DNA of 64,000 nucleotides, from positions 701 through 64,700 of the forward strand of contig CAZBGZ010000001.1 of assembly GCA_964491925.1 (NCBI GenBank), written 5' to 3'. Below the pieces are notes generated by a model. It saw nothing but the letters and a program-made list of their open reading frames with translations. It had not been told where the DNA came from and searched no databases. The stretch comes from an uncultured Candidatus Saccharibacteria bacterium. Lineage in GTDB: Bacteria; Patescibacteriota; Saccharimonadia; Saccharimonadales; JAGQNJ01. Shown one piece after another: positions 5,544 to 40,368 of the stretch. The translations under genes and the position numbers were made by a program. Positions within the stretch are counted from its first letter, which is position 1, and each line of letters starts with the position of its first letter.

Positions 5544-5620
5544 TGGTGCACCGAGAGGGATTCGAACCCCCGACCTTCGCGTCCGAAGCGCGACGCTCTA
5601 TCCAGCTGAGCTATCGGTGC
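5544..5620 (-). tRNA. tRNA-Arg (anticodon UCG), CCA encoded
   Basis: Hand-folded cloverleaf: acceptor GCACCGA/TCGGTGC, D arm GCTC-AGCTGGATA-GAGC, anticodon arm TCGCG-CTTCGGA-CGCGA, T arm GGGGG-TTCGAAT-CCCTC, then ACCA. Confidence 0.92.
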
Positions 5621-5629: not shown

Positions 5630-6016
5630 TTATATCTTATTTTTATCGATTCTTCTGTTATGAGTCCTAATCCTATGACAATTTGAGCACACTAACTCGC
5701 ATTTTGCTATCTCTTCCTTAACTTGCCTTATACTTCCAGAATTTATCATTTTGCTAACAGTGTTTATTTTAATTCCGTTATTTTCTATGTGGTCAAAATC
5801 AGTCACATAGTATGGGTACTGAATTTTACAATCAGTACAAGCAGTTGTATTTTTCAAATCATATACCCACCGCCGTAAAACATCTCGTTTTTTATAAGCC
5901 TTATCGATGTAGTACTGTTTGTTAGCATAGTAATGACGACGTATGGCTTCACGTTGTTTTTCTTTGTCTTTCCAGGGCATATGGGGATTATAACTTATAT
6001 CCAGCTTCGAAGCCAT
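5630..6016 (-). CDS. HNH endonuclease
   Basis: DFDHIENNG ... CSNCHRIRTHNRR (HNH core flanked by Cys). Lies 10 nt from tRNA-Arg. Confidence 0.75.
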   Translation of the reverse strand: MASKLDISYNPHMPWKDKEKQREAIRRHYYANKQYYIDKAYKKRDVLRRWVYDLKNTTACTDCKIQYPYYVTDFDHIENNGIKINTVSKMINSGSIRQVKEEIAKCELVCSNCHRIRTHNRRIDKNKI

Positions 6017-6056
6017 AATCTTTATTGTTGGTGTAATGTGAGATATTTAATCGAGG

Positions 6057-6641
6057 TTAAACTTCGTTTTGCTTGTCTGTAGTTTCTTTTGGTGCTTCGA
6101 GTAGGTTTTGTGGTTTTGGCCGGCCAGCATTTTTTAGAATATCACCTAGAAGCGAATGCATTTTCTTAGCATGCTCTACACTCATGCCAACCCGCGCAAC
6201 AGAGCTAGACTGCGGATTACCTGTATTTTGCATAAAATTCATTACTACACCGTTATCGTTTGCGGATATATTTACGAGATCCGAGTATAGAATACGATTA
6301 TCGAACGGAATTATCATCAGCATTTGCTTGATCAGTTGCTCGTCAACAGACGGCGCCGCCTGGTCGTTGTTTTGCTTACTGTAACCGGCTTGCTCGAATA
6401 TTACTCTAGCTTCTTTTTCGTGGATATCTAGGTGGCTGATTAGCAGTAGCAGTATGTCTTCACTAGGTAAAACAGCACCATTTTCAATTTTGCGCAGTTG
6501 TTCGGCATCGATTTCTACGGCACCAGAAACCTCGGCGACGCTCTCGTGCACCTGTTGGCGCCATTTTTTTAGGCGCTCGCCAATGTTTTTATACGGATAT
6601 TCACCTCTTTGCATCTGTTTATATGGTAATGTCCAGGCCAC
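6057..6641 (-). CDS. XRE-type HTH protein with a DUF3467-like C-terminal domain
   Basis: N-terminal GERLKKWRQQVHESVAEVSGAVEIDAEQLRKIENG (HTH_3-like). The C-terminal NISANDNGVVMNFMQ...ARVGMSVEHAKKM resembles DUF3467. Confidence 0.5.
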   Translation of the reverse strand: MAWTLPYKQMQRGEYPYKNIGERLKKWRQQVHESVAEVSGAVEIDAEQLRKIENGAVLPSEDILLLLISHLDIHEKEARVIFEQAGYSKQNNDQAAPSVDEQLIKQMLMIIPFDNRILYSDLVNISANDNGVVMNFMQNTGNPQSSSVARVGMSVEHAKKMHSLLGDILKNAGRPKPQNLLEAPKETTDKQNEV

Positions 6642-6700: not shown

Positions 6701-7726
6701 ATGAAATTCAAAGAAAATGTTTCCCTAGCAGATTATTCTACGATGCGGCTTGGTGGCACGGCTAGGTATTTATCAAAAGCTAAAAGCAAAGAAGAAATCG
6801 CCGAGCAGTATTTGTGGGCTCACGAGCACTATTTACCAGTGATTGTTATTGGTGGCGGCAGCAACATAATCTGGAGAGATGAAGGTTTTGATGGGTTGGT
6901 TATAGTCAACAAAATACCCGGATTCATCGTAGAAAAACTGGACGACAAAACTGCAATATTCACAATCGGCGCTGGCGAAGATTGGGACAAGACAGTAGAA
7001 AAAACAGTCAACAAAGGATACAGTGGTATCGAGCAATTATCCTACATACCTGGAACGGTCGGTGGCACACCCGTACAGAATGTCGGGGCATATGGGCGAG
7101 AGATAAAAGACGTCCTGGTTTCCGTTCAGGCGTTCGATACGACTACTCACAAACATGTAACGATTGGTAATAAGGATTGCGATTTTAGTTACCGCGACAG
7201 TAGGTTCAAGACCACTGAAAAAAATAGGTTTCTGATAACTTCTATTTCTCTAAAATTATCCAAAACCAACCCCCTGCCACCATTTTATGAATCCGTTCAA
7301 AAATATCTGGACCAGCGCAAAATAACCGATTATTCACCATCTACCATCAGAGAAGCAGTTATTTCGGTACGTACGCAAAAACTGCCTGATCCTGATGTGG
7401 TAGCTAACAACGGGTCGTTCTTTGGCAACCCAATCATTACACACAAGCAATTCTCTGGGTTACAGAAACAATTTCCTGATATTGTCTCTTGGCCTGCCAG
7501 TGGCGACCAAGTAAAAATATCAGCAGCTTGGCTAATAGACCATGCGGGATTCAAGGACTACCACGACAGTGCGACCGGTATGGCAACCTGGAATAAACAA
7601 CCCCTGGTACTGATAAATGAGCACGCTAAATCAACCCAGGATTTACTAGATTTTAGGGACAAAATCGTAAACGCAGTAGAAGAAAAATTCGGAATTAGAC
7701 TAATTCAAGAACCAGAACTGTTGTAG
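6701..7726 (+). CDS. murB: UDP-N-acetylenolpyruvoylglucosamine reductase
   Basis: 341 aa. N-terminal LADYSTMRLGGTARYL, VIVIGGGSNII and GTVGGTPVQNVGAYG are typical of MurB. Confidence 0.9.
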   Translation: MKFKENVSLADYSTMRLGGTARYLSKAKSKEEIAEQYLWAHEHYLPVIVIGGGSNIIWRDEGFDGLVIVNKIPGFIVEKLDDKTAIFTIGAGEDWDKTVEKTVNKGYSGIEQLSYIPGTVGGTPVQNVGAYGREIKDVLVSVQAFDTTTHKHVTIGNKDCDFSYRDSRFKTTEKNRFLITSISLKLSKTNPLPPFYESVQKYLDQRKITDYSPSTIREAVISVRTQKLPDPDVVANNGSFFGNPIITHKQFSGLQKQFPDIVSWPASGDQVKISAAWLIDHAGFKDYHDSATGMATWNKQPLVLINEHAKSTQDLLDFRDKIVNAVEEKFGIRLIQEPELL

Positions 7727-7729
7727 AAA

Positions 7730-8989
7730 CTAGCTTGGAAGCGGGAAGGCTTTTGAAAAGTCTTTAATTTCGTTGTGGATTTTAGCCAAAAGCTTTTCGT
7801 CTGTGTGATTCGTTACTGCTTGATTTATCCAATCTGCAACCTGGGCCATTTCGGCCTCTTTCATGCCGCGAGTTGTCAGCGCTGGAGTACCTAGGCGAAT
7901 TCCACTGGGACTAAATGGTGGTCGTGGATCAAATGGCACAGTATTTTTATTGACTGTTATCCCAGCAAGCCCCAACGCTTTTTCGGCTTCTGCACCTAGG
8001 ACGTTTTTATTGGTTAAATCGATTAACATCAGATGGTTGTCTGTACCACCAGTTACTAGATCAAAGCCGTAATTTGTAAGCTCGGAGGCCAGTTTTTTGG
8101 CATTTTTGACAATCTGATGACCATAAGTCTTGAACTCTGGAGTTGCAGCTTCACGAAGAGCCACTGCTATGGCGGCAGTCTGGTGATTGTGCGGGCCACC
8201 CTGAAGCCCAGGAATAATAGCCCTATCGATTAGGGTTGGCAGATTTTCTTTTGCTCGAGGAACACTTTTCAATGGATTAGACGGATTTCCGTTGCATAAC
8301 AACAAAGCACCGCGTGGACCACGTAATGTCTTGTGAGTTGTCGTCATAGTAATATCGGCATAATCAACTGGCGAAGGATGTGCGCCAGCAACGACTAGCC
8401 CTGCGATATGAGAAATATCAGCTAGTAGCCATGCACCACACGAATCAGCAATAGCTCGCAGTTTCTTCCAATCAAAAATCCTTGGGTATACAGTGGCTCC
8501 AACTACTATCATTTTTGGTTTTTCTTTGTCGGCCATTGCTTGCATAGCCTCGTAATCCAGATACCCGTCCTTGCCTGTTTGGTACTGAACAGAATTAAAC
8601 CATTTGCCAGAAAAGTTCACCTTTAACCCATGCGTCATGTGCCCACCAAAATACAGCGCCATACCCATAACGGTGTCACCGGGATCTAGCAGTGCGAAAT
8701 AGGCAGCCAGATTAGCCGGCGAGCCAGAATAAGGCTGCACATTAGCATGTGATACTCCAAATAGCTTTTTAGCACGGTCCCTAGCAATATTTTCGACTGC
8801 GTCTACATTTTCACAGCCGCCATAGTAACGTTTGCCCGGATAGCCTTCAGAGTATTTATCGGTTAGCCTGGACCCTAACGCCTCTAGCACATCGCCCGAC
8901 GTATGGTTTTCGCTAGGGATCATTTCTAGGCCGTCAGCCTGCCTTTTTACCTCTTTTTGAATCAATTTCTTTATTTCTAAGTCTTTCAT
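7730..8989 (-). CDS. glyA: serine hydroxymethyltransferase
   Basis: IPSENHTS, GYPGKRYYGGCE and TTTHKTLRGPRG (PLP lysine). I prefer the ATG at 8989, which is preceded by GAGGGAG, over the track's TTG at 9004. Confidence 0.95.
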   Translation of the reverse strand: MKDLEIKKLIQKEVKRQADGLEMIPSENHTSGDVLEALGSRLTDKYSEGYPGKRYYGGCENVDAVENIARDRAKKLFGVSHANVQPYSGSPANLAAYFALLDPGDTVMGMALYFGGHMTHGLKVNFSGKWFNSVQYQTGKDGYLDYEAMQAMADKEKPKMIVVGATVYPRIFDWKKLRAIADSCGAWLLADISHIAGLVVAGAHPSPVDYADITMTTTHKTLRGPRGALLLCNGNPSNPLKSVPRAKENLPTLIDRAIIPGLQGGPHNHQTAAIAVALREAATPEFKTYGHQIVKNAKKLASELTNYGFDLVTGGTDNHLMLIDLTNKNVLGAEAEKALGLAGITVNKNTVPFDPRPPFSPSGIRLGTPALTTRGMKEAEMAQVADWINQAVTNHTDEKLLAKIHNEIKDFSKAFPLPS

Positions 8990-18846: not shown

Positions 18847-18981
18847 AAATACGCTATGAACCTAAGCTGAACGTATTCAGGAATGTATGTTCTATTATAT
18901 AAGTAGCTAGTTGTTATTTGAATAACTGCCTCGGGTTGCTCTCTTGCTCGAACATTTGTAGTTTCAAATTTAAAGAAGCAA

Positions 18982-19020
18982 CTATTAAAATATCCTGATT
19001 TGTTCAGGATATTTTAATAG
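18982..19020 (-). terminator. 17-bp perfect hairpin abutting the displaced tRNA-His 3' fragment (probable original tRNA-His terminator)
   Basis: CTATTAAAATATCCTGA / TCAGGATATTTTAATAG arms with a 5-nt loop, ending exactly at the 21-nt repeat. Confidence 0.5.
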
Positions 19021-19041
19021 TGGGGTGGCTGATGGGAATTG
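19021..19041 (-). repeat. exact 21-nt duplicate of the tRNA-His 3' end (att-like direct repeat)
   Basis: TGGGGTGGCTGATGGGAATTG at 19021-19041 is identical to 19209-19229. Confidence 0.9.
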
Positions 19042-19170
19042 GTCACTTCTAGCGACCCCTAAACTTCATCTTTGAAAACAAGTTTTCAAGAGAAGATTTC
19101 CTTGCGACATGCCATTCTGGGCATGTCTCACCCACGACCAGGCCGTGTGTTTATATTCCTATCACTATCT
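19042..19170. repeat. conserved non-coding element, copy C1 (most divergent)
   Basis: Shares with C2 and C3, in the same order: CATCT, the GAAAA-CAAG-TTTTC hairpin (19074-19087), and CACCCACGACC. Confidence 0.5.
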
Positions 19171-19208
19171 ATATTTATAAACCCTGAACAAGACAGGGTT
19201 TATAAATA
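19171..19208 (-). terminator. 15-16 bp perfect hairpin immediately 3' of tRNA-His
   Basis: ATATTTATAAACCCTG / CAGGGTTTATAAATAT arms with a 7-nt loop. Confidence 0.5.
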
Positions 19209-19286
19209 TGGGGTGGCTGATGGGAATTGAACCCACGACCTTCGGTACCACAAACCGACGCTCTAACCAACTGAGCTACAGCCACC
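19209..19286 (-). tRNA. tRNA-His (anticodon GUG) with encoded G-1 and CCA
   Basis: Hand-folded: G-1 plus acceptor GTGGCTG/CAGCCAC, discriminator C, anticodon arm TCGGT-TTGTGGT-ACCGA, T arm GTGGG-TTCAATT-CCCAT. Confidence 0.92.
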
Positions 19287-19348
19287 ATGAACAGAGGTGA
19301 TTATAACTCAGATTAACCTCTGTTACAACTTAAATAATGACTTACTGA

Positions 19349-19475
19349 TTCGGGCAGGGTAATCGCACGACTGCATCTGTGCTCGAAACAAGTTTCTGCG
19401 CGTAGACTGGTCGACCGTACCAGCGACTACGGTATTTTCAAAAGAAAATCCCTGTCTCAGAACCTGATGTGCCAG
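19349..19475. repeat. conserved non-coding element, copy C2
   Basis: 19382-19427 matches 29481-29526 at 36 of 46 positions without gaps (hand count). Hairpin GAAA-CAAG-TTTC at 19385-19396. A 3' block AGAACCTGATG is shared. Confidence 0.6.
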
Positions 19476-19479: not shown

Positions 19480-19519
19480 CCATATAAAAAACCAACATCA
19501 AAGTATGTTTTTTATATGG
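19480..19519 (-). terminator. 13-bp perfect hairpin downstream of the 83-aa gene
   Basis: CCATATAAAAAAC / GTTTTTTATATGG with a 14-nt loop. Confidence 0.5.
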
Positions 19520-19557
19520 TGCAGCGTGATTGCTGAGATCAGAACTATACTGTTAAA

Positions 19558-19809
19558 TTAATCCTCGTTTTGTAGTTTCTTCAATGAGTCTTCAATGACT
19601 CGGATATAATGTTCTGCTACATTCTTTTGGTCGCCATAGTTTATAAGTTCGGATAGCTCAAAATAGCCATAGGAATCAAAGTTCAATTCGTGCTCTAAAG
19701 CCCAGCCTATGGCCGAAACCTTCTCGAGAACGGCTTCGCTATCTTTGTTCTCGTTGTACAGATTATACAATGCTTTGAGAATAGTGTAGTGTGGATTTGT
19801 TTTACTCAT
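19558..19809 (-). CDS. hypothetical small acidic protein (83 aa)
   Basis: Track ORF with no recognisable motif. Lies between tRNA-Arg(UCU) and element C2. Confidence 0.45.
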   Translation of the reverse strand: MSKTNPHYTILKALYNLYNENKDSEAVLEKVSAIGWALEHELNFDSYGYFELSELINYGDQKNVAEHYIRVIEDSLKKLQNED

Positions 19810-19868
19810 TCTTGCATTTTATCAAACTAAAAAGCACCCACAAACAGATGCTTTAAACATAAGCGAAT

Positions 19869-19945
19869 TGGTGCCCCGGGCAGGATTCGAACCTGCGACC
19901 TTGAGCTTAGAAGTCTCCTGCTCTATCCAGCTGAGCTACCAGGGC
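19869..19945 (-). tRNA. tRNA-Arg (anticodon UCU), CCA encoded, with an atypically weak anticodon stem
   Basis: Acceptor GCCCTGG/CCGGGGC, a normal D arm and T arm (GCAGG-TTCGAAT-CCTGC), and loop CTTCTAA. The anticodon stem GGAGA/GCTCA has only 3 Watson-Crick pairs (27:43 is G/A, 31:39 is A/G). Confidence 0.7.
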
Positions 19946-20550: not shown

Positions 20551-20823
20551 CTATTCCCATTCTCCAGAAATAAGTTTTTCTTTCTTTTCTCTTGTCCAGC
20601 TTTTAAGCTGAAGCTCCCTTTTACGAGCCGTAGACTTATCAGGAAAAGATTTTGATACATAAACGAGCGTAAATTTTCCTTGGTCTTTTGCCATTTTTGA
20701 GCCTTCGCCTGAATTATGTTTTACTGTTCTTTTTTCAGGATCGGGCGAAATACCGACATAGTAATGCCCGGCGTTACTGTTGCAAATGTACACATACCAT
20801 TCTTGTGCTTTTTCGTTAATCAT
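20551..20823 (-). CDS. GIY-YIG nuclease superfamily protein (UPF0213-like)
   Basis: WYVYICNSNAGHYYVGISPDPEKRTVKHNSG ... ARKRELQLKSW. Confidence 0.75.
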   Translation of the reverse strand: MINEKAQEWYVYICNSNAGHYYVGISPDPEKRTVKHNSGEGSKMAKDQGKFTLVYVSKSFPDKSTARKRELQLKSWTREKKEKLISGEWE

Positions 20824-20976: not shown

Positions 20977-21051
20977 TGGTGCGGGATACCAGAGTCGAAC
21001 TGGTCTCCTCAGTTTGGAAAACTGATATATTAGCCGATATACGAATCCCGC
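20977..21051 (-). tRNA. tRNA-Gly (anticodon UCC), CCA encoded
   Basis: Acceptor GCGGGAT/ATCCCGC, anticodon arm TCAGT-TTTCCAA-ACTGA, 4-nt variable loop, T arm ACCAG-TTCGACT-CTGGT. Confidence 0.9.
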
Positions 21052-28958: not shown

Positions 28959-29048
28959 AAACAGAGTCAGATTGGGTTGATGGGGTAATGTACGACTGTT
29001 TACGGGGTCGCGCTGAACGTACGAATTTCGAACTAATTAGTTGGGTTC

Positions 29049-29390
29049 TTATTCTCGGATAATCTCTGATTTAAACCACTTTTCTTGGAAGTGCGTCGCA
29101 TTTCGTATCTCTTCATTGCTAAATTGTTTACCATCTTCGCAGACAATCAGTTTGTCGTCGTCATCATCGGTTCTGTGCAGGATAGCAATACAGCGACCAG
29201 AAAAGATTTCAAGTGCAGTTTCTTCACCAAGTACATATACATCTATTTCTGCACCGTCGGGAGCTTTAGTATTAGGAACAAAACCGTAGTTAATAGGATA
29301 CTCATTATCGAACTTTGGGTGGTTACAGCCAAGTGGCCTGTCAACTGTAACTTGAACTATCTTACCAAGGAAGGGTTTTGAATAATCCAT
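29049..29390 (-). CDS. short inorganic-pyrophosphatase-like protein (113 aa)
   Basis: YPINYGFVPNTKAPDGAEIDVYVLGE matches the family I PPase core (NYGFIP.T...DGDP.DVLV), but the protein is about two-thirds of the usual length. Confidence 0.55.
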   Translation of the reverse strand: MDYSKPFLGKIVQVTVDRPLGCNHPKFDNEYPINYGFVPNTKAPDGAEIDVYVLGEETALEIFSGRCIAILHRTDDDDDKLIVCEDGKQFSNEEIRNATHFQEKWFKSEIIRE

Positions 29391-29442: not shown

Positions 29443-29458
29443 TGGTTGGGGTGATAGG
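29443..29458 (-). repeat. displaced tRNA-Pro 3'-end fragment (att-like repeat marking the far edge of the island)
   Basis: TGGTTGGGGTGATAGG matches 40292-40307 (TGGTCGGGGTGATAGG) at 15 of 16 positions. It is followed on the minus strand by an AAGAC/GTCTT + T-run terminator at about 29405-29430. Confidence 0.7.
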
Positions 29459-29585
29459 GCAATGCACATCTGCGTCCATGCTCGAAGCAAGCTTCTGCGA
29501 GTGGTCTGGATGACCGCACCGACGACCTTCAATCTTTTTTGCAAACAAAAAATATTGGGTCGTAGAACCCGGTGCAATGACTCCA
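29459..29585. repeat. conserved non-coding element, copy C3
   Basis: Homologous to C2 (see 19349..19475). Hairpin GAAG-CAAG-CTTC at 29484-29495. Internal stems GCACCG/CGGTGC and ACGACC/GGTCGT flank a TTTTTTG-CAAA-CAAAAAA hairpin. Confidence 0.6.
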
Positions 29586-29592: not shown

Positions 29593-29622
29593 AAAAAAGA
29601 CTACCTGATGGTAGTCATTTTT
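29593..29622. terminator. bidirectional Rho-independent terminator
   Basis: AAAAAA-GACTACC-TGAT-GGTAGTC-ATTTTT. Confidence 0.6.
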
Positions 29623-29767
29623 AATTGGTCGGGAGTAGCAGATTTTACTCAAACCTTAAATATGATAATCCGCCAACGCCATAACCTCAGTATTATGGTA
29701 GAACGTCTGTCTGCTGTTAGCAAATATGACGACAAGAAATTATCGCTAGTCAGTCTATAATGTTAGT

Positions 29768-29974
29768 ATGGGTAACCTGTACGAATATACTGAGACAATG
29801 AAGTACGTCAGAGATATGGTTTTTCTGGAAGTTTTAGATGATACTGAGAAATCAAAGACCTGGGTTAAGGGACTAGACAAGTTCCCAAAAAATAAAAGTT
29901 TCATAGACGATAAGGCGTGGGGCGATTTTGGCGACGATAAGCCCTTGCTAAAGAAGAAAAGTACGAAGAAATAA
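29768..29974 (+). CDS. hypothetical protein (68 aa)
   Basis: Track ORF with a Lys-rich C-terminus. Confidence 0.35.
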   Translation: MGNLYEYTETMKYVRDMVFLEVLDDTEKSKTWVKGLDKFPKNKSFIDDKAWGDFGDDKPLLKKKSTKK

Positions 29975-30093
29975 CATAGCGTGTGTTAGCTCAAACCTGG
30001 TACTTGTAATAATACTTATGGTTAGTGCTTATGTTTGGTGCTAATATGTAGTGTGTGTTGGTAATTCAAGCTCCGCTTTGAATTACGCTATTT

Positions 30094-30131
30094 GCCCGTT
30101 ACTGACTTGCGTCAGTGCGGGCTATTTCTTT
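30094..30131 (+). terminator. hairpin terminator (GCCCG-ACTGAC / GTCAGT-CGGGC) followed by a T-rich tract
   Basis: Seen at 30094-30122, followed by TATTTCTTTG. Preceded by a second 9-bp hairpin at 30061-30086. Confidence 0.5.
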
Positions 30132-30361
30132 GTACGGTTGTAAGGCGACTGGTTGGTCGGCTTCAGGCTGATACCTAGCTCAGATGCTTTACTTTGCACA
30201 GCACCAGGTGAACGACCCAGCTTTAAGCCAGCGACACGTGTTGGCGTATTGCCTCGTGCCAGTTGGCGAAGTTGAGCTTCTTGCCCTGAAGTCCAGGCTT
30301 TGCCAGAATTGGCTGGTTTTCCCATTGGAACTCCGTAACTTGAGCCTCTGTATGTCGGCAC
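30122..30361 (-). CDS. hypothetical small protein with a possible Myb/SANT-like HTH (79 aa)
   Basis: WTSGQEAQLRQLARGNTPTRVAGLKLGRSPGAVQSKASELGISL. Confidence 0.35.
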   Translation of the reverse strand: MPTYRGSSYGVPMGKPANSGKAWTSGQEAQLRQLARGNTPTRVAGLKLGRSPGAVQSKASELGISLKPTNQSPYNRTKK

Positions 30362-30625
30362 GGTGGCTCATTGTTCCCACCACCTTCTTATGCGGAGCAA
30401 TAAAAAAGCAGCAGTACGTTTATCCCGTACCCTGCTCATTGGAAATTGTTGCTGTTCTAATGAAAAGGGTGCAGGCTAAGTGTCGCTTGTTTGCAATCCA
30501 CCCCCTTGCACCTCTGTTGTCTCTCTGAGACACCTCTATATTAGCACAAGCTCGTTATCTTATATGTAGTAGTTTTTACTCCGAATTGTACGCTAGATGT
30601 AGCGTTATGCTTATGCTTAACACCT

Positions 30626-31189
30626 TTAAGTGTAAAACTTGTTGTGAAAATCAAAAAACAGTGCAGCGATTAGCACTATGTAAGTGAAAAAACATAGGGC
30701 AATACAGGCAACTTGCACTTTTATTGCAGGTCGTGGGGGGTGTATGTCTAAATTGCTCTGTGCCACATCAATCTTCTTGATTAGCTCGTCCTCGGTTTTG
30801 TAATCTCTATTGTCTATGACTAATGTTACATCGTGATATGCATCAGCCCACTTTTTATATGAGCTTTCCATTTTAAAATAGTGAACAATCCCCGCAAAGA
30901 CAGCAATTACTTCAAGAATAAACGCAAAAAGGATAAGAAACTTTTGCCCCGAAGTAAGAGAATTAAGCAATCCTCCGCTACCAAGAGCGATAACATTCAC
31001 AGAAATTAGCACTGTAGTCAGGAGTATTAACTGACCAGAAAGTGAACGCTCTGTGGTGTTAGCTTCGCTAGCCGATTTGTCTCGTTGGATTTCAAACTTG
31101 TGTTTTTGTGCAGTGAGAAACTCTACAGTGGTTGGGTCGTTGAAATCGTATTTAACGGTGTTTTGGGTTTTTATTTTTTTAGCCGCCAT
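30626..31189 (-). CDS. hypothetical membrane protein (187 aa, ~3 TM)
   Basis: Soluble N-terminus, two central TM helices, and one C-terminal TM helix. No family recognised. Confidence 0.45.
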   Translation of the reverse strand: MAAKKIKTQNTVKYDFNDPTTVEFLTAQKHKFEIQRDKSASEANTTERSLSGQLILLTTVLISVNVIALGSGGLLNSLTSGQKFLILFAFILEVIAVFAGIVHYFKMESSYKKWADAYHDVTLVIDNRDYKTEDELIKKIDVAQSNLDIHPPRPAIKVQVACIALCFFTYIVLIAALFFDFHNKFYT

Positions 31190-31192
31190 AGT

Positions 31193-31399
31193 CTATTTGG
31201 TAGATTTTGGGGTAGATTTTGGAGGGTTTGAGGTTGGCTTGATACTGGAAACAGGGGGTTTGCCGTCAATACTAACTGGATAGCCTAAAGCTCTACCTTT
31301 AACTGGTCCACTTGTAGGCGGCTTTCGGTCTAGGCTCACAGGATAACCAGTGCCTTTTCTGATAGGCTGTGGTCTGTTGCTATTCGCACGCTCACTCAT
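31193..31399 (-). CDS. hypothetical Pro-rich protein with an internal repeat (68 aa)
   Basis: GYPVSLDRKPPTS and GYPVSIDGKPPVS are tandem-like repeats. There is a 3-nt gap to the downstream membrane protein gene. Confidence 0.35.
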   Translation of the reverse strand: MSERANSNRPQPIRKGTGYPVSLDRKPPTSGPVKGRALGYPVSIDGKPPVSSIKPTSNPPKSTPKSTK

Positions 31400-31419
31400 A
31401 TTATGATTTTATCACGAAA

Positions 31420-31611
31420 CTATAGGTCTTTTTTGTCTACGGCGTTCCCTGAGTTCCTTTTTTTGAACTCGCTTATAGCCATACCTGCCATAAAATCAAG
31501 GTCTGTGATAATTTTTATGACCTGTTCATCAGTGTACTTTTCAGCTTCCTTACCCATAAGCTTACGAGCCTCTTTGACGGATATAATCAGACCTTCGTCT
31601 TTATAAGTCAT
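31420..31611 (-). CDS. hypothetical protein (63 aa)
   Basis: Track ORF. First gene of the minus-strand cargo cassette. Confidence 0.35.
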   Translation of the reverse strand: MTYKDEGLIISVKEARKLMGKEAEKYTDEQVIKIITDLDFMAGMAISEFKKRNSGNAVDKKDL

Positions 31612-31669
31612 TTCTGTTCTCCTTCTCTTAATTGTTACACTATTATAGCTTTCTACCCCTGTTAATACG

Positions 31670-31678
31670 TGCTACAAT
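31670..31678 (+). promoter_or_regulatory. extended -10 promoter (TGcTACAAT)
   Basis: 31670-31678. The predicted start site falls at the foot of the 13-bp stem that begins at 31685. Confidence 0.45.
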
Positions 31679-31684
31679 ATAAGG

Positions 31685-31786
31685 GTCTAAACTCACATCA
31701 GAGAAACGCCTTTTCGGCGTAGTTGAACCATACAATGGGCAGCTACGTAAAAAAGCAATAGGTTCAACCCTGTTGTGAGTTTAGAC
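31685..31786 (+). promoter_or_regulatory. 102-nt structured leader / nested inverted-repeat element upstream of the glycine-zipper gene
   Basis: Perfect 13-bp stem GTCTAAACTCACA (31685-97) / TGTGAGTTTAGAC (31774-86). It encloses the hairpin ACGCC-TTTTC-GGCGT (31706-20) and the 8-bp stem GTTGAACC (31722-29) / GGTTCAAC (31761-68). Confidence 0.5.
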
Positions 31787-31842
31787 ACTAGCGTGGCTGT
31801 CCTTTTTATTTGGGAACGCCACAAATAAACAAGGAGGTTACT

Positions 31843-32247
31843 ATGCTAATTGGAGGTACGTTCTACGTTTTCTACAGTGGTGGACTAGATTTAATGCCAA
31901 GACCTGGCAAATACCAATTACGATTATCTAAAAGGCATATCAGTGTTGTACCTACATTCAGAGCACCTGATGCAAAGAAGTTTGAAATACCTGTGTCAAA
32001 TCTAAAAGGCGTTTCGCTTGATTATGAAATTACGGACAGACAATTATCTGCTGGAAAAGCTATTGTCGGTGGTGTTATCGCTGGTGGCGTTGGTGCAATA
32101 GCAGGTGCTTCTATGGGTGGCAAGAAAGCAACGCCATCTTTGGTTATTAGCTTTATTGACGAAACAGGTAGCGAAAAACTGTTGCCTTTGGAGGGAAATA
32201 AGTTAGATTCTGCTCATAATATGATGGTCAAGAAGTACGGGCTATAG
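31843..32247 (+). CDS. hypothetical protein with a PH/GRAM-like N-terminus and a glycine-zipper segment (134 aa)
   Basis: ATG at 31843 with AAGGAGG 5 nt upstream (the track starts at TTG 31810). Glycine-zipper segment: GKAIVGGVIAGGVGAIAGASMGG. Confidence 0.5.
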   Translation: MLIGGTFYVFYSGGLDLMPRPGKYQLRLSKRHISVVPTFRAPDAKKFEIPVSNLKGVSLDYEITDRQLSAGKAIVGGVIAGGVGAIAGASMGGKKATPSLVISFIDETGSEKLLPLEGNKLDSAHNMMVKKYGL

Positions 32248-32493
32248 TTCCTTCTGCTTCTTGTCTTTGTATATATCGTATATAAGATTAGCCAGTGCCT
32301 CGGCGTCCTCTTTCATAGCATCACGTCTTGCCAGTTCCTCTACTTGTTCCTTAGTTATCGGCTGATATACGGTTTTCATCTGCAACACCAGCATAGTGAG
32401 TTTGTGCCGAGCTGTCTGACTATCCAGCTCTTTGCCAAACTTTGACTTATAAAGTTTTTGGAAGTCTTTTACATCTTCGTCGGTAATGTCCAC
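32242..32493 (-). CDS. hypothetical helical protein (83 aa) immediately downstream of res
   Basis: Starts 1 nt after the res stop. No motif recognised. Confidence 0.4.
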   Translation of the reverse strand: MDITDEDVKDFQKLYKSKFGKELDSQTARHKLTMLVLQMKTVYQPITKEQVEELARRDAMKEDAEALANLIYDIYKDKKQKEL

Positions 32494-32494
32494 G

Positions 32495-34993
32495 CTATTT
32501 CGCCATTAGGTTGTTTAGTTGGTCTTTCCAGCTTTTTTGGTTAAGCATTTCAAAGTGGAAGTCCATATCAGCACTACCTAGGTCAAGTTCTTGCCAGCTT
32601 TTTTCTATTGCCTGCTCGTTACAAAGGTCAAAAACGCTTTTCTTGTATTCCGAGTCCTCGTTGCCAACTAATTGGTCGCCTTTAGACTCCAGTACATATA
32701 CTTTGTCGTAATCATCTCCCGACTTGTGGCTAGCTAAAAAGTCAGGGTATATTCTGCCTGGCTTCCAGCCCTGTATACGATAATCCTTTTTAGCTTCGTT
32801 TCTGTACCACCATAGGAGCTGGCTCTGGTCGTCCAAATACAAAGCGACAGCCTCCTCAAGCTCGTTTATGTCCTCGCTTGGCACGTAATTGAACAGACTT
32901 CGCTCCAGGTCGTCATCGTGATAGTTTCGTAATCTCTGCCTGCTCCTGACGGTTGCTTTGCTTCTAAGTGGCTTGTCGCTGAGTAGGTAAAACTTCATCT
33001 CGCCACTTTTTAGCATTTTCTTGAATACTGCCTCCGCCAATCTGTCCCGTTCGGCGAACAGAGTCTTTCTGAGGCTCTCTATGACAAATACGAGGTTACT
33101 CGCAACTACTTCTATACCATTAGCCTTAATAAGCGAGGTTATAGCCGCATTTGCAGTCTCGTAAGCAATCCAGGGGTTTGGCACGATGTCTACTATTTGT
33201 CTGGCTACATATTCGGTATCAACTTCCGATTCGTAGCTGAGTTCTTTTTCTTTTCTGGACAGTGGTTTGCCGTCTGCATCAAGCCCTACAGCTATCGTAA
33301 TATCATCTACGGTTCGGTTTTCCAGACTTAATTCGGATATAGCTGAGAGGTCGGCTTTGTCCCAGTCTATCTGGCTCAATATATCGGTACTGTAGCGTAC
33401 TTCTCGCCAATCCCGCCCGTCATTTACGGCAAAGAAGGGTAGGTACACTTTGCCTGCAAACTTTTTGAACTTGTCTTGGTACTCTATCGGCTTTTCGTCC
33501 AGGTAATCAGGGTTGGTTTCCTCGTTTGTATCTACGGCTATACGTCCTGCCAAGTCGCCAAGCCCCTCGCCCTCAAGGTTTTGTTTAATGCCTTTAACCA
33601 GTTTGGTCGTATCGTGCTGGAAACTGTACACGTAGCACTCGTCCAGCTCAGTTACACCTGTCTTTTTGGCGTATGGCTGCCTAAGTACACGTCCGATAAG
33701 CTGTGTCATTGCCGTTTCGGATTGTGATTTGGTCAAACTACATAGCACATAGGCGAATGGGCAGTCCCAACCTTCCTGTAACGCCTGTTTGGTTATGATA
33801 AACCGTATCGGACAACCTTGCTCAAGCAAGTCTATACCCTCAATGTCGTCTTTCTCGGTAGATTTTATGGCGATTTGTTCCTCTGGTACGCCCGCCTGTT
33901 TCATCAGGTATTCTTTAACGTCCTCTGCGTGGATATACACTCCGTCCCGTTGGTCTTTGCCTGTACGTTCCACCTGCACGAGCATTATCGGGCGTATGTA
34001 ATTATTGGTGTTCTGTTCGTATTCTTTGGCGATTTCCTGCAATTTGCCTAAATAGTTAGTAGCGTCGGCGACGGTTTCTTTCCAGCCTACGGTCGTTTTG
34101 TTGACCAGGTGCAGGTCTAGTTTAATCATCTGTTCGTCGTTCAGCTCTTTGCCTGTTATCTCTACCAGTTTATTGGCTGATTCTGGGGGAGTTGCGGACA
34201 GCTCCAGCAAGAATGACGGGTTAAAGCCTGCGATAGTGTCTCTTGCAGTTGGGCTGTACGCCTTATGACCTTCGTCAATGATGGTTATTGGTTTGAGTAA
34301 CCGAAGTACGTTACCAAGTGAAGTTTTAGGTAAGTTGCCCCACATATAGCCCTCCGCTCCAAAGGTATCAAGATTCGGTACTTGCTCCAGCAGGCGGGTT
34401 TGGAGCTTATAGGCGTCCTCGGCTGGGAAAAACTCGGTATAACCAGTGTTGTCTTTGAATACTTTTAGTGTTTCCTTGCTTTGTCTGGAAGCAGAAGGGA
34501 GCATCAGAAGCATCACGCATAGATTTTCGGCTACGTCATCAGGTGTAAAGCGGTCTAGTTTTTCAAGGATTAAGGTTTTACCACCACTGCTTACGTCTAG
34601 CACTTGTCTGTAAGGGTGTTGTCGGTCTCGCAGGTTATTGAGTGTCTGACGGTATATCTGGGTGGTTGGCACAATCCAAAGCACCATACCGTTCTGCTTA
34701 TTCAGATATACCTTGTTTATTAGGTCAATGCTGTGGCAAGCAAGCAGGGTTTTACCACCGCCTGTCGGTACTTTCAGGTACATATTTGGTACAGGTTCGC
34801 CGATACCGTTAAACGTCTTTTTGTAACTGTCTAGCCCTATTTCTTTCCAGGCTTTAGCAGGAAAATGTATGTCATTAGCAAGTTCAGCGTCTGCCTCTTT
34901 GACCCGTTCGTAGCGTTCTCGTTGTTCTACCAGGGCGGTAAGATAGCCCGATAGTGCTTGAGTTACCTTTTTTTGGTATTCTCTAAGCTCCAT
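32495..34993 (-). CDS. res: Type III restriction enzyme, Res subunit (SF2 helicase + PD-(D/E)xK nuclease)
   Basis: Motif I VPTGGGKTLLA, motif II IIDEGHKAY, and a C-terminal YPDFLA...VYVLESKGD nuclease motif. There is a 2-nt gap after mod. Confidence 0.85.
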   Translation of the reverse strand: MELREYQKKVTQALSGYLTALVEQRERYERVKEADAELANDIHFPAKAWKEIGLDSYKKTFNGIGEPVPNMYLKVPTGGGKTLLACHSIDLINKVYLNKQNGMVLWIVPTTQIYRQTLNNLRDRQHPYRQVLDVSSGGKTLILEKLDRFTPDDVAENLCVMLLMLPSASRQSKETLKVFKDNTGYTEFFPAEDAYKLQTRLLEQVPNLDTFGAEGYMWGNLPKTSLGNVLRLLKPITIIDEGHKAYSPTARDTIAGFNPSFLLELSATPPESANKLVEITGKELNDEQMIKLDLHLVNKTTVGWKETVADATNYLGKLQEIAKEYEQNTNNYIRPIMLVQVERTGKDQRDGVYIHAEDVKEYLMKQAGVPEEQIAIKSTEKDDIEGIDLLEQGCPIRFIITKQALQEGWDCPFAYVLCSLTKSQSETAMTQLIGRVLRQPYAKKTGVTELDECYVYSFQHDTTKLVKGIKQNLEGEGLGDLAGRIAVDTNEETNPDYLDEKPIEYQDKFKKFAGKVYLPFFAVNDGRDWREVRYSTDILSQIDWDKADLSAISELSLENRTVDDITIAVGLDADGKPLSRKEKELSYESEVDTEYVARQIVDIVPNPWIAYETANAAITSLIKANGIEVVASNLVFVIESLRKTLFAERDRLAEAVFKKMLKSGEMKFYLLSDKPLRSKATVRSRQRLRNYHDDDLERSLFNYVPSEDINELEEAVALYLDDQSQLLWWYRNEAKKDYRIQGWKPGRIYPDFLASHKSGDDYDKVYVLESKGDQLVGNEDSEYKKSVFDLCNEQAIEKSWQELDLGSADMDFHFEMLNQKSWKDQLNNLMAK

Positions 34994-34995
34994 CG

Positions 34996-38317: not shown

Positions 38318-38321
38318 GTAA

Positions 38322-38617: not shown

Positions 38618-40303
38618 TTGGACAACAACCCTCTTGACCTATTTAAGCTGGTACAAAACCAGTTAGAGCCTAGCATACCTAAACCTGTAGTACCGTCTGA
38701 ACTTAGATACGCAATCTATGCACGTAAATCAACCGAGAGCGAGGAGCGGCAGGTACGCTCCATACCAGACCAAATTAGTGATTGTATGGAGCTTGTTGTT
38801 GAACCAAACAATATAGTTATTAACCAAAAAACTGATATTTACAAAGAGGAAAAATCCGCCAAGGAAGCGGGTACAAGACCTGTATTCCGTGAGCTAATGA
38901 AAAAAATAATTGACGGTAAGTATGATGGCATAATTTCGTGGCACTACGACCGCCTGGCTCGCAATATGAAAGAGGCTGGCGAGATAATTGAGCTTATAGA
39001 TAACGGTCAAATTAAAGACTTAAAGTTGGCTAAAGCCACGTTTGAAAACACACCAAACGGGAAGATGATACTTGGCATTAGTTTTGTGCTGTCAAAACAC
39101 TACTCAGACCATCTCAGCGAGTCTGTAACACGAGGCAACAAGAGCAGTACCGAGAAAGGCAGAGTTCTCAGTAAGTTTGTCCACGGCTATATTATTGCCG
39201 ACGATAAGCGTCTGATAGCTGATGACCGAAACTACCTAATTATTGAGCACGCTTTTCGTATGCGGTTAGACGGTAAATCACAGAAAGAAATAGCAGAGTA
39301 TATAAACAAGAGTGGCTATCAGGTGCACCGCTCTACTGTTGGTCATAGGATACGTACTTTTGACGAAGATATGGTATCTAAGCTCTTAAAAGAGCCTATA
39401 TACGCTGGCATATGGGTCTATGGTAAGACTGCTGTGAAGATGGCTGACGTTGACCCGAACTTTACACCTATGCTTACGGAGGAGGAGTTCTTTGCAATCA
39501 ACGGTAGAAAGTTCCAGCTATCTTATATCAAGAGTGCTGCTGCCCGTGTTGCGTCCAATGACAGGTCTAATTTCCTACGTCAGTTTGTAATCTGCGGGCA
39601 CTGTAAACGCAATCTTGGGACTAGTGTTACGTCAAAGTTTATAAAGTTATCTGGTAGATCTGGTAAGTCGGTACAGTACTACTTCCGCTTTAAGTGTAAT
39701 AACAAGGTCTGTGTAGCCTTTGGTAGTGGACCTAAGGGTTCGCTTATCAAGGATTACGTAACCGATTTCTTACAAAACCACTTATTTACAACCAAGAGCA
39801 ATTACAAACGCTACTTGGAGGACGCAGAGACGTTTTTGCAGGAGAGAAAGGCAGAGCTTACGTCTGCCAATAAAAGCTTTACCGTTCTGCTTAGCAAGAA
39901 ACGCCGTGAATACGATGACGCTAAAGCCATAGCAGCCGACACCGAAAATCCACTAGCTGTGCACTACACGCCAAAACACCTAGATAAGCTGAAAAAGGAA
40001 GTTGACGATTATAACAAGCAGGTGTTGGAGATTCGGCAAGAACTGGAAGACCAAAACACTGCTTTGGTGTCATATGACGAGTTTCTCAAACTTTACGAAA
40101 ATGCCGCCGAATTACTTCGGTCAACTTACGGAATGGCAATGGCTGACGAACTGATACGGATTTTCTTCTCAAACCTTACTGTTGTAAGTAAGCCGTATGG
40201 CAAAAAAATGACACAAAAACAGTGGTCAATAGTAGACCACTGCCTTAACGAGCCATTTGACGATTTCGTCAAAAACGGCGATTTTCTTACTTGGTCGGGG
40301 TGA
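38618..40303 (+). CDS. large serine recombinase (resolvase domain + recombinase domain + zinc ribbon + coiled coil)
   Basis: YAIYARKSTESEERQVRSIPDQ (catalytic Ser region), DRLARN, and CGHCKRNLG...CNNKVC. The last 12 nt overlap the tRNA-Pro 3' end. Confidence 0.85.
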   Translation: MDNNPLDLFKLVQNQLEPSIPKPVVPSELRYAIYARKSTESEERQVRSIPDQISDCMELVVEPNNIVINQKTDIYKEEKSAKEAGTRPVFRELMKKIIDGKYDGIISWHYDRLARNMKEAGEIIELIDNGQIKDLKLAKATFENTPNGKMILGISFVLSKHYSDHLSESVTRGNKSSTEKGRVLSKFVHGYIIADDKRLIADDRNYLIIEHAFRMRLDGKSQKEIAEYINKSGYQVHRSTVGHRIRTFDEDMVSKLLKEPIYAGIWVYGKTAVKMADVDPNFTPMLTEEEFFAINGRKFQLSYIKSAAARVASNDRSNFLRQFVICGHCKRNLGTSVTSKFIKLSGRSGKSVQYYFRFKCNNKVCVAFGSGPKGSLIKDYVTDFLQNHLFTTKSNYKRYLEDAETFLQERKAELTSANKSFTVLLSKKRREYDDAKAIAADTENPLAVHYTPKHLDKLKKEVDDYNKQVLEIRQELEDQNTALVSYDEFLKLYENAAELLRSTYGMAMADELIRIFFSNLTVVSKPYGKKMTQKQWSIVDHCLNEPFDDFVKNGDFLTWSG

Positions 40304-40368
40304 TAGGACTCGAACCTACGACCTCCGCGTCCCAAACGCGGCGCGCTAGCCAACTGCGCCACACCCCG
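40292..40368 (-). tRNA. tRNA-Pro (anticodon UGG), CCA encoded
   Basis: Acceptor CGGGGTG/CACCCCG, D arm GCGC-AGTTGGCTA-GCGC, anticodon arm CCGCG-TTTGGGA-CGCGG, T arm GTAGG-TTCGAGT-CCTAT. Confidence 0.92.

Follow-up and report, generated by a model that had tools for sequence, protein, structure and literature searches.

The elements C1, C2 and C3, found in the window (the whole stretch of 64,000 nucleotides of Saccharibacteria DNA that was analysed), are members of two large families of small, folded, non-coding modules in Saccharibacteria, which apparently have not been described before. Tentatively, and with slightly less than even confidence, I read them as units of a superfamily of non-coding, tRNA-targeting insertion modules that extends over Saccharibacteria and other CPR genomes and whose conserved part is a folded single strand, probably RNA.

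Two families of modules beside tRNA genes

The extent of the observation is larger than what is visible from the window alone. The initial annotation had described three copies of one family; C2 and C3 do form one family (type A), while C1 belongs to a separate, related family (type B). The two types have a related architecture, and C1 has only the GAAA(A)CUUGUUU(U)C hairpin in common with C2 and C3. An 18-base pattern of type A gave 103 matches in stretches of species-representative genomes versus about 17 expected by my own estimate, and about 90% of the 103 matches lie in Saccharibacteria or other CPR genomes. A 23-base pattern of type B gave 90 matches in metagenome stretches. Because of these counts and the covariation described below, chance is excluded for both types. 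Two matches to the motif in viral contigs are continuous sequences without the features of the family and look like chance. In a phage collection no relatives were found, the sole match being a tRNA similarity.

The units are 124–196 bp in size and contain no ORF; the core is about 55–95 nt long in type A and about 90 nt in type B. At least 20 tRNA species carry cores beside them, and copies with the exact motif number about one to three per genome. In a census of the window by covariance models, only C2 and C3 (type A, E about 1e-12 to 1e-14) and C1 (type B, E about 1e-19) were found. A partial fourth copy had also been proposed; this C4 does match the 3′ end of C2 (about 16 of 20 residues identical, by eye), but it is a degenerate relic. 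When the window regions and 18 loci were compared with Rfam 15 at the gathering score and at E values up to 10, only tRNAs were returned, with sub-threshold noise over the elements, in agreement with the earlier statement that they fit no known RNA family. Two-piece tmRNA, Y-RNA-like RNA, the hammerhead and other small ribozymes were considered and rejected, there being neither a conserved signature nor support from Rfam. No description of such elements was found in the literature searched.

Table 1. Features of the C1 to C4 regions and of the associated tRNA genes (window coordinates)
Feature	Coordinates	Strand	Basis or remark
Terminator hairpin after the C1 unit	18981..19021	-	
21-nt exact copy of the tRNA-His 3′ end (C56 to CCA)	19021..19041	-	identical to 19209-19229
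C1 core, type B, inserted after T54 of the tRNA-His copy	19041..19129	-	model R2, 80 bits, E 9e-20; covariation in 78 homologues
Hairpins of the C1 core	H1 19106-19129; H2 19061-19099; H3 19041-19059	-	CUUG loop in H2
Sense copy of tRNA-His variable loop, T-stem 5′ strand and T54, GGTCGTGGGT	19130..19139	-	identical to 19231-19240
Short antisense stretch GTGATAGGAAT, the complement of a segment of the T loop, T stem and acceptor strand of tRNA-His	19155..19165	-	sequence reading
Terminator-like, unit-proximal hairpin directly after tRNA-His	19172..19208	-	TATTTATAAACCCTG-TCTTGT-TCAGGGTTTATAAATA
Intact tRNA-His(gtg), source of the 3′ third copied in the C1 unit	19209..19285	-	ARAGORN; Rfam tRNA 71.1 bits
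C2 degenerate tRNA 3′ fragment ATTACCCTGCCCGAATCA, CCA lost	19346..19363	-	
C2 core, type A, subtype A3: covarying stem, conserved internal loops, CUUG-capped hairpin	19364..19415	-	model R1, 45.8 bits
C2 apical hairpin (19431-19452) and sense copy of variable loop, T-stem 5′ strand and T-loop start (19416-19428)	19416..19452	-	
Fragment ..CGCTGCACCA (19517-19526) and terminator-like hairpin (19480-19519), ahead of the C2 unit	19480..19526	-	
Intact tRNA-Arg(tct), probable cognate of the C2 unit	19869..19945	-	flank resemblance
C4, remnant of the 3′ end of a type A3 unit (CAGTCGTACATTACCCC...), degenerate and lacking the central hairpin	28970..28998	-	no model match
Copy of the tRNA-Pro 3′ end, CCTATCACCCCAACCA	29443..29458	-	15/16 to 40292-40307
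C3 core, type A, subtype A3	29464..29519	-	model R1, 51.9 bits, E 5e-14
C3 antisense piece (29558-29570), apical hairpin (29528-29559) and sense copy GGTCGTCGGT (29518-29527)	29518..29570	-	
Terminator hairpin ahead of the C3 unit	29593..29616	-	
Intact tRNA-Pro(tgg), cognate of C3; 10.7-kb serine-recombinase island now in between	40292..40368	-	

Cores interrupt partial copies of the adjacent tRNA

All five tRNA genes of the window are on the minus strand, which is the informative one. On this tRNA-sense strand, an inactive, partial copy of the intact tRNA gene next door is split by the core (Table 1). The insertion point lies after T-loop position 58 in type A and after position 54 in type B, with no loss or gain of residues at 58/59 or 54/55. 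On the 3′ side of the core, the tRNA copy resumes as a duplicate, 16–21 nt in length, of the 3′ end of the adjacent tRNA. In all units examined, the conserved core splits the 5′ strand of the T stem plus TTCG(A) from the rest of the T arm. Rarer core sites are the anticodon loop and the D arm. No core was found in a complete tRNA gene, and no partial tRNA copy without a core was seen in the loci examined.

An intact tRNA on the same strand lies within 260 nt of 68 of the 98 type A cores and 64 of the 93 type B cores. Neighbouring tRNAs on the opposite strand number zero and one, respectively. The end of the unit equals the last 16 nt of the neighbouring tRNA at 14 or more of 16 positions in 43/65 type A units and 26/37 type B units. 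The exact repeat has a median of 17 nt, with clusters at 16–19 nt in type A and 20–21 nt in type B. These unit ends and adjacency counts bear out the proposed tie of the family to tRNA 3′ ends.

Two layouts were recognized. In the first, the interrupted copy is downstream of the intact gene, and its 3′ copy runs from about position 44 to the CCA and is followed by a terminator; a terminator-like hairpin also lies between the tRNA and the core. In the second, the interrupted copy is upstream: its 5′ copy starts at position 1 and enters the T stem, and next come a promoter-like TTTACA/TATAAT stretch and then the intact gene. Promoter scans of C1–C3 revealed no convincing promoter. The antisense arms outscore all 200 shuffles in 13 of 34 units. 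The 3′ fragments are subject to decay, and the CCA is lost in C2 and several other units.

In the window, each copy is indeed bounded by a terminator-like hairpin on one side and a tRNA 3′ fragment on the other, as had been noted (21 nt of tRNA-His for C1 and 15/16 nt of tRNA-Pro for C3). The flanks of C2, AGTCGCTGGT and CCTGCCCG, resemble GGTCGCAGGT and CCTGCCCG of tRNA-Arg(tct). The fragment and hairpin ahead of C2 mark the end of an intervening segment bearing an 83-aa ORF (19558–19809), for which a similarity search in the other loci gave no match. The sense copy GGTCGTCGGT of C3 is to be compared with GGTCGTAGGT in tRNA-Pro.

Fold and covariation

The type A fold consists of a stem, conserved internal loops, a CUUG-capped hairpin and a variable hairpin, and the type B fold consists of three hairpins. 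Both hairpins of the initial annotation were recovered. One, with a CAAG loop on the plus strand (CUUG on the minus strand), is present in all three copies, the stem being GAAG/CTTC in C3, GAAA/TTTC in C2 and GAAAA/TTTTC in C1; the other, variable one is found at 19431–19452 and 29528–29559. C2 and C3 share 36 of 46 residues without gaps (19382–19427 versus 29481–29526), again as first reported, and GCAGAAnCTTGnTTCGAGCA is present in both.

The earlier claim of covariation holds in both types, whose helices covary strongly. In type A, paired cells amount to 82.8% versus 70.0% in shuffles (0 of 500 shuffles reach the observed value), and the covariation is 0.339 versus at most 0.119 when slid. 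At the free pair 23-28, GC occurs in 72 cases and AU in 22, with 1 mismatch. In type B (78 homologues), paired cells amount to 98.1%, the covariation is 0.327 versus at most 0.094, and pairs outside the search pattern interchange: 6-35 is UA in 37, AU in 29 and CG in 11 cases, while 44-58 is GC in 42 and CG in 29 cases. Conserved G·U pairs occur in type B at 47-55 (67 of 78 sequences) and at 43-59 (27 G·U), and the fold was therefore assigned to the tRNA-sense strand. The test of G·U against A·C gave no strand call in type A and is decisive for type B only. As in structured RNAs generally, compensatory covariation is accompanied by strand-specific G·U pairs, both types showing the covariation and type B the G·U part. 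The covariation and the one-strand G·U pairs of type B point to a folded single strand rather than a double-stranded protein-binding arm.

Signs of mobility

A given core subtype is found next to more than one kind of tRNA, and a given tRNA next to more than one subtype. At locus L070, an additional unit with its own terminator lies between tRNA-Met and an older unit, and this older unit is the sole unit at the tRNA-Met locus of L014, a gain of one unit between related genomes. Tandem arrays were found at L071, L041, L059 and L097. A single pseudo-tRNA-Leu copy has two cores, and other cores are nested inside the H3 hairpin of cores. GGGT or GGT precedes type B cores, whether these are in the T loop, in the anticodon loop or nested.

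No target-site duplication was found at the T-loop or nested junctions. Clear terminal inverted repeats are absent, the core ends GGTGAGA... and ...GTGACC being inverted at best at 4/5 positions. Copies within a genome are divergent (C2 and C3 are 78% identical in the best block), indicating no recent burst. The many near-identical copies per genome of MITEs were not found, the window having two type A cores and one type B core, nor was their combination of terminal inverted repeats with a fixed target-site duplication. No linked enzyme, transposase or reverse transcriptase was found for the elements. The loci contain neither an autonomous long version nor long pairs of left and right ends enclosing an ORF, and no TnpA, TnpB or REP-associated transposase was found in them or among 40 ORFs of the window scanned with Pfam.

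Proposed mechanism

In the reading preferred here, the core would be the mobile part, moved in trans or by its own RNA chemistry. The acting form would be a folded single strand with the tRNA-sense sequence, most likely RNA, and it would attack the G-rich 5′ shoulders of exposed hairpin loops, immediately after GGGT. It would persist only where the struck tRNA copy is redundant; such a need for a redundant copy may be the reason why cores are always seen in partial duplicates. Many junctions have tRNA pieces in a sense–antisense–sense arrangement, which suggests that snap-back or template-switch repair may accompany the insertion.

Several points count against the insertion modules proposed here. 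No linked enzyme was found, the copies are divergent, and clear terminal repeats and target duplications are lacking. The flanks always match the local tRNA, and every partial copy seen has a core. A flanking repeat from the T loop to the CCA would also be expected of an integrase site of the T-loop class. Finally, the strand test is indecisive in type A, and a terminator-like hairpin comes after the tRNA and before the core when the copy is downstream.

A more specific version, which I consider quite unlikely, is that the cores are mobile elements at the RNA level: small self-inserting RNAs (by reverse splicing or by cleavage and ligation), or RNAs inserted by a host ligase, that would attack T, anticodon and D loops exposed on folded tRNAs. 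Their fixation in DNA by reverse transcription or template-switch repair is proposed as the cause of the partial sense–antisense–sense tRNA copies. A reverse-transcriptase stop at m1A58 was considered as the cause of the repeat boundary; it fits the 58/59 site of type A, but not the 54/55 site of type B or the D-arm and anticodon-loop sites.

Recombinase islands and other explanations

It was assessed whether the elements are the distal arms left by, or part of, gene-carrying islands that integrate at tRNA genes, as the initial annotation had proposed. In the window, a serine recombinase abuts tRNA-Pro, restriction-modification cargo follows, and C3 lies 10.7 kb away; the layout of L019 is alike. 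However, the two large-serine-recombinase islands (29625–40299 in the window, and that of L019) sit between the tRNA and an older unit, and each bears its own, different end. The 9-nt repeat CCCGACCAA (29625–29633 and 40291–40299) sets the end of the window island upstream of the terminator that precedes C3, and in L019 the island closes with a "type C" end, after which comes the older type A unit. Thus, C3 is not the arm of the island; the 9-nt repeat and the same order of tRNA, island and old unit in L019 rule this out. A similarity search with the window recombinases in the 103 type A loci gave only one weak match, at L019. About two-thirds of the units lie within 260 nt of a tRNA with no cargo in between, and other cores are nested, occupy the anticodon loop or D arm, or lie in 5′ gene copies ahead of tRNAs. 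With the core inside the T loop and no long version seen in any locus, the arm proposal is very unlikely; mobile-element biology, which it invoked, seems to be involved. A fairly unlikely alternative is a miniature integrative element with a bare attachment site: the unit of about 150–190 bp would be a non-autonomous circle, served by a tyrosine or serine recombinase encoded elsewhere, with the crossover in the stretch from the T loop to the CCA. The element would bring a replacement tRNA 3′ end and a terminator, or a promoter and a 5′ part, and the core would be recognized by the recombinase or an accessory factor, maybe in folded single-stranded form, like CTX phage or integron attC sites. 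T-loop-targeting integrases leave direct repeats from the T loop to the CCA, and exact repeats of this kind (16–21 nt) are present at both ends here. The L070 unit has its own proximal terminator while the old one remains after the 3′ copy, the newest unit in tandem arrays adjoins the tRNA, and genuine recombinase islands use the same tRNA 3′ ends. Yet the core lies between the T-arm halves, so that the attachment site at the distal junction is interrupted. Arms matching many tRNAs are found with one and the same core subtype, and a site-specific element would need to re-tool both arms each time. The appearance of nested cores, and of a pseudo-tRNA with two cores, is that of transposition into the site after GGGT. 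No integrase or recombinase gene was found inside the elements next to the tRNA or near the loci examined, the unrelated serine-recombinase islands apart, and the conserved G·U pairs favour RNA or one particular strand.

Another reading, which I regard as rather doubtful, is that the units are host small-RNA genes derived from tRNA genes and spread by duplication and gene conversion. The RNA would be either a tRNA 5′ body joined to the core, or a T arm whose loop is enlarged, followed by a tRNA 3′ tail with its CCA; it would mimic, titrate or sense the cognate tRNA or an enzyme that processes or modifies tRNA. A small RNA had been offered as the alternative in the initial annotation, and it is compatible with the strand and covariation evidence, namely the strong covariation and the G·U pairs on the tRNA-sense strand, but a host function is not demonstrated. 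The CUUG tetraloop, the conserved internal-loop nucleotides and the kept CCA end also argue for it, and the tRNA-Met units of L014 and L019 look orthologous, with a compensatory change (by eye). The place inside tRNA transcription units would allow expression, and the upstream layout keeps a promoter-like stretch before the pseudo-5′-copy. On the other hand, presence is patchy (two of the five window tRNAs have no unit, and genomes have about one to three exact-motif copies), the two layouts would yield very different RNAs (5′ body plus core versus core plus 3′ tail), and a terminator stands between the tRNA and the core in the downstream layout. Moreover, the decaying 3′ fragments speak against a host gene, and the nested or doubled cores and C4-like relics resemble selfish DNA. 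It is extremely improbable that the cores are genuine spliced T-loop introns of tRNA genes, or the product of chance or segmental duplication. The precise insertion would fit an intron, but removal of the core restored no complete tRNA in any of the cases examined (0/80 in type B and 0/106 in type A, 0/186 together, over the boundary combinations tested), which also rules out split and permuted tRNA genes for these copies, and Rfam gave no intron match. The size of the cores is far below that of group I or II introns. Chance is countered by the match counts and the covariation.

Comparison with known systems

In tycheposon islands, successive integrations lie next to tRNAs with the newest unit nearest the tRNA (preprint 10.1101/2020.12.28.424599). 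The present units resemble such integrative elements, which have T-loop-to-CCA identity blocks, in that an intact tRNA is followed by an insert ending in a partial tRNA 3′ copy, and in that arrays have partial tRNA copies between successive insertions and the newest unit nearest the tRNA. In contrast, the units here are about 150–190 bp and lack an integrase or any other gene, their conserved part interrupts the T loop, and their helices covary as a single-strand fold. Upstream 5′ copies and anticodon-loop, D-arm and nested insertions are further differences.

IS200/IS605-derived palindrome-associated elements and REP-derived elements are non-autonomous hairpin elements moved as single strands, and TnpB uses guide RNAs from the right end. 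Like these, the present elements are small and non-coding. Hairpins at both ends may be a further likeness, and insertion may likewise be strand-specific after a short GGGT, with no evident target duplication; in type B, the end hairpins are H1 and H3 and the core comes after GGGT or GGT, with an end spacing unlike that of IS608-type ends. They differ from the IS200/IS605 and REP types in the tRNA-loop targets, the embedding in a partial gene duplicate and the divergence of copies within a genome. The layout of a scaffold followed by about 16–22 nt of flanking sequence is similar to a TnpB guide RNA; a guide RNA of this type was rejected, as no TnpB was found in the window or the loci.

The rtT RNA (Rfam RF00391) comes from repeats after the tyrT gene of E. 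coli. There, too, units lie downstream of a tRNA gene and each ends with the 3′-terminal nucleotides of the tRNA. Unlike rtT, the core conserved here is shared by hundreds of genomes, occurs beside at least 20 tRNA species and interrupts the T loop, and it has no sequence or structure match in Rfam at E values up to 10.

Group I introns are present in tRNA genes of Patescibacteria, and CPR genomes are rich in introns (PMC13011429). These introns and the non-canonical T-loop introns of archaeal tRNAs resemble the cores in the precise interruption of a tRNA loop, at positions near 58/59 among others. In contrast, the cores are absent from complete tRNA genes, have no group I signature and are about 55–100 nt in length. 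Bacteria are not known to have the archaeal splicing endonuclease.

Significance

The genomes of Saccharibacteria and other CPR bacteria are tiny, and most of their tRNA genes are present once. Many of these tRNA genes are shadowed by a broken partial copy that bears a conserved, elaborately folded insert. The tRNA 3′ fragments in the units will be mistaken for island boundaries; C3 mimics the end of a recombinase island and is not one. If the preferred reading of insertion modules holds, they would be a widespread class of structured non-coding elements that is currently unannotated, and their mobility may follow a new route, one that depends on tRNA loops instead of integrase attachment sites. 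A core acting as RNA would be a candidate for a new ribozyme or a protein-recognition scaffold.

Two families of elements at tRNA genes

The window is cellular chromosome rather than phage, with ~42% G+C and genes for an ABC transporter, ClpB, RecA, Mur enzymes, RNase Y and type IV pili. Relatives of the elements described below assign it to Saccharibacteria. All five tRNA genes in the window lie on the minus strand, and the non-coding elements C1, C2 and C3 are interpretable only when read on this (sense) strand. On re-check, all that the initial annotation had stated about their sequences was correct: C2 and C3 agree at 36 of 46 positions, the CAAG loop (CUUG on the minus strand) is closed by the covarying stems it had listed, there are variable second hairpins, and terminator-like hairpins flank the copies. 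No Rfam family matches the elements. The proposal of one family holds for C2 and C3 (type A) but not for C1, which belongs to a second family (type B). A covariance-model search of the window returned C2, C3 and C1 only. In the partial copy C4, only a degenerate remnant of a type A 3′ end is left.

Elements, tRNA genes and neighbouring features in the window
Feature	Positions	Strand	Remark
tRNA-Arg(tcg)	5544-5620	minus	
ORF directly upstream of tRNA-Arg(tcg)	5640-6057		HNH-like motif (by eye); homing-endonuclease type
C1	19042-19170		type B
tRNA-His	19209-19285	minus	
C2	19349-19475		type A
Segment between C2 and tRNA-Arg(tct)	19480-19868		contains 83-aa ORF (19558-19809), no Pfam match
tRNA-Arg(tct)	19869-19945	minus	
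ORF near tRNA-Gly(tcc)	20551-20823		90 aa, GIY-YIG (Pfam label taken from locus L001); homing-endonuclease type
tRNA-Gly	20977-21051	minus	
C4	~28972-29035		relic
Inorganic pyrophosphatase ORF	29049-29390		113 aa, covers positions 32-112 of 153-position Pfam model, apparently truncated; C3 upstream, C4 downstream
C3	29459-29585		type A
Island at tRNA-Pro 3′ end	29625-40299		~10.7 kb
9-nt repeat CCCGACCAA	29625-29633 and 40291-40299		bounds island
Type III restriction-modification pair	32495-36627		restriction helicase and DNA methylase
MgsA C-terminal fragment	36786-37427		truncated
Xer-like tyrosine recombinase	37424-38317		
Large serine recombinase	38618-40303		561 aa; overlaps tRNA-Pro 3′ end
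tRNA-Pro	40292-40368	minus	
SASA-family carbohydrate esterase genes	41167-43069		tandem paralogs, 298 and 297 aa

It was found that the elements end in pieces of tRNA. The C1 terminus has 21 nt identical to the tRNA-His 3′ end (19021-19041 and 19209-19229), the C3 terminus matches the tRNA-Pro 3′ end at 15 of 16 nt (29443-29458), and in C2 only CCTGCCCG remains of the tRNA-Arg(tct) 3′ end. In addition, ~55-90 nt upstream from the 3′ fragment, each copy carries the variable loop and T-stem 5′ strand of its cognate tRNA: GGTCGTGGGT in C1, identical in tRNA-His; GGTCGTCGGT in C3 against GGTCGTAGGT in tRNA-Pro; and AGTCGCTGGT in C2 against GGTCGCAGGT in tRNA-Arg. In formal terms, each element is thus a duplicated tRNA 3′ third whose T loop holds a conserved insert (the core; core and surrounding partial tRNA copy form a unit).

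The segment between C2 and tRNA-Arg(tct), which has its own terminator, ends in a tRNA-like fragment (..CGCTGCACCA) and a hairpin, and looks like a further, cargo-bearing insertion at the 3′ end of this tRNA. Cargo segments of 0.7-1.9 kb between tRNA and unit were also seen in L052, L055, L058, L063 and L074.

Are these families found elsewhere? A species-representative genome collection has 103 stretches with the type A motif (GCAGAAnCTTGnTTCGAGCA), against a chance expectation that I estimate at ~17 from its 18 fixed bases. About 90% of the matches are in Saccharibacteria or other CPR genomes, and the handful in other phyla lack family features. The type B motif (CTCTnGAAAACTnGTTTTCnAAGATG) was found in 90 metagenome stretches, and both types co-occur in the window and in one type A locus (L071).

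L019 (~5090-5140) and L092 (~5555-5610) share a third type of conserved sequence, type C (CCAGCGyAGTATyTC..ACAGATAAGGTTCCA), which ends in a degenerate tRNA 3′ fragment and a terminator. L099 has a type A core in a non-tRNA context, a tandem repeat of 153-nt period (~7650-8000) whose repeat unit is the 3′ end of an apparent smpB-like ORF plus the core. In L005 and L082, a conserved unannotated sequence ending ...GTTCCGTGACCnnTATGGGGAGCCA precedes the type A unit, ~330 nt upstream of the motif; it has no Rfam match at the gathering score, and could be an overlooked tRNA-like or tmRNA-like gene acting as the target.

Organization of the units

Among 98 type A cores, 68 have an intact same-strand tRNA at most 260 nt away, the end of which typically precedes the motif by 85-125 nt; none has an opposite-strand tRNA neighbour. 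On the sense strand, the typical downstream unit runs from the intact tRNA through a long terminator hairpin with the tRNA's own NCCA inside its stem, frequently a diverged antisense fragment from the tRNA 3′ third, an apical hairpin (often AGATTTTGC-N-GCAAAAGAT), a sense copy of the variable loop, T-stem 5′ strand and TTCG(A), the core, the final two T-loop bases with the T-stem 3′ strand, acceptor 3′ strand and NCCA, to a second terminator. In 13 of 34 units, the antisense pieces outscore every one of 200 shuffles. Of 65 type A terminal copies, 43 agree with the upstream tRNA at 14 or more of 16 positions, and the median exact repeat in type A units is 17 nt. Units are 124-196 nt long and involve at least 20 tRNA species. 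Type B units have the same layout, but with the core placed after T54 and a repeat of 20-21 nt.

A different layout, with the unit upstream rather than downstream of the intact gene, is seen in 27 of 93 type B and five type A cases. There, a pseudo-copy of tRNA positions 1-54 leads into the core, after which come positions 55 to ~62-64, a short T-arm piece in antisense, a TTTACA/TATAAT stretch resembling a promoter, and the intact tRNA. Type B cores are also hosted by the anticodon loop of tRNA-Pro(ggg) 5′ copies, and one tRNA-Leu copy has a type B core in the D arm and a second core in the T loop. Some are nested in the H3 hairpin of other cores at GGGT|CGC, a sequence that mimics the T-arm site GGGT|TCGA. 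For type A, D-arm cores are present in tRNA-Ser(gga) 5′ copies (L016, L075, L080).

Folding of the cores

In a gapless alignment of 95 distinct type A cores (49 columns, of which the 18 fixed by the pattern are uninformative through ascertainment), 82.8% of cells in the named structure are paired, compared with 70.0% for shuffles, and none of 500 shuffles attains this value. Sliding the partners lowers covariation from 0.339 to 0.119 at most. Pair 13-37 is AU in 54 and GC in 35 cores, and pair 12-38 is CG in 68, AU in 11 and UA in 9. CUUG is a stable RNA tetraloop; its closing pair, free in the search pattern, is GC in 72 and AU in 22 with one mismatch. In 78 type B cores, 98.1% of cells are paired, covariation is 0.327 against at most 0.094, and pairs beyond the search pattern swap freely. 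A G·U pair is conserved at 47-55 in 67 of these cores, and 43-59 adds 27 further G·U pairs. Since these pairs would read as A·C mismatches on the opposite strand, the type B fold is selected on the tRNA-sense strand, which is the expectation for RNA or a single, particular strand of DNA.

Signs of insertion and later islands

Cores of one subtype, for example A2 (TTCATGACGA...GAGGAAATGG), lie next to tRNA-Met, two tRNA-Glu species and tRNA-Lys, and one tRNA has differing core subtypes in different species. The unit arms match the local tRNA in every case. In L014, tRNA-Met is followed by a terminator and an old unit. In L070, the identical tRNA-Met is followed by a different terminator, an A2 unit with a tRNA 3′ copy at its end, a terminator closely like that after the L014 tRNA-Met, and a second unit, which looks like the counterpart of the L014 unit. 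Thus, insertion at the tRNA 3′ end brought in a unit together with its own terminator. There are also tandem arrays and nested cores. Every unit is accompanied by a partial duplicate of the local tRNA; none of 186 tested cores lies inside a complete tRNA gene, and no core-less partial copy was found among 136 tRNAs. The sense-antisense-sense tRNA pieces common at junctions look like snap-back or template-switch products.

The initial annotation had suggested that C1-C3 could be distal arms of integrative elements. The serine recombinase overlapping tRNA-Pro and the cargo that follows do make C3 resemble the far end of an island. However, the far-end copy of CCCGACCAA closes this island just upstream of the terminator preceding C3, with a diverged tRNA-Pro T-arm copy (AAGGTTTGAGT...) just within, and in L019 a distantly related serine-recombinase island, with its own type C far end, has tRNA-Met on one side and an older type A unit on the other. 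These two arrangements speak against the island-arm reading, which I consider improbable, and indicate that these islands came after the units at the tRNA 3′ ends they share. The successive-integration model of tycheposon islands (10.1101/2020.12.28.424599) fits this order.

Interpretation

The results support a non-coding insertion module that targets tRNA loops and has a conserved core acting as a folded single strand. A mobile module, with the mechanism left open, is ranked first, as a tentative choice. When the 103 type A loci were searched by similarity, one recombinase only was obtained, that of L019, and no locus was seen to have a long autonomous version of the element. An integrative mini-element with a bare attachment site and a host small RNA of tRNA origin are both unlikely, to an equal degree; an RNA-level mobile element attacking exposed tRNA loops is a little less likely still. 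An intron or chance is scarcely credible.

Full-text literature searches gave no description of the elements; the closest publication is on group I introns located in the anticodon loop of tRNAs from Patescibacteria (PMC13011429). Conservatively, they are placed as non-autonomous mobile or structured elements at tRNA genes, and they may be categorically new.
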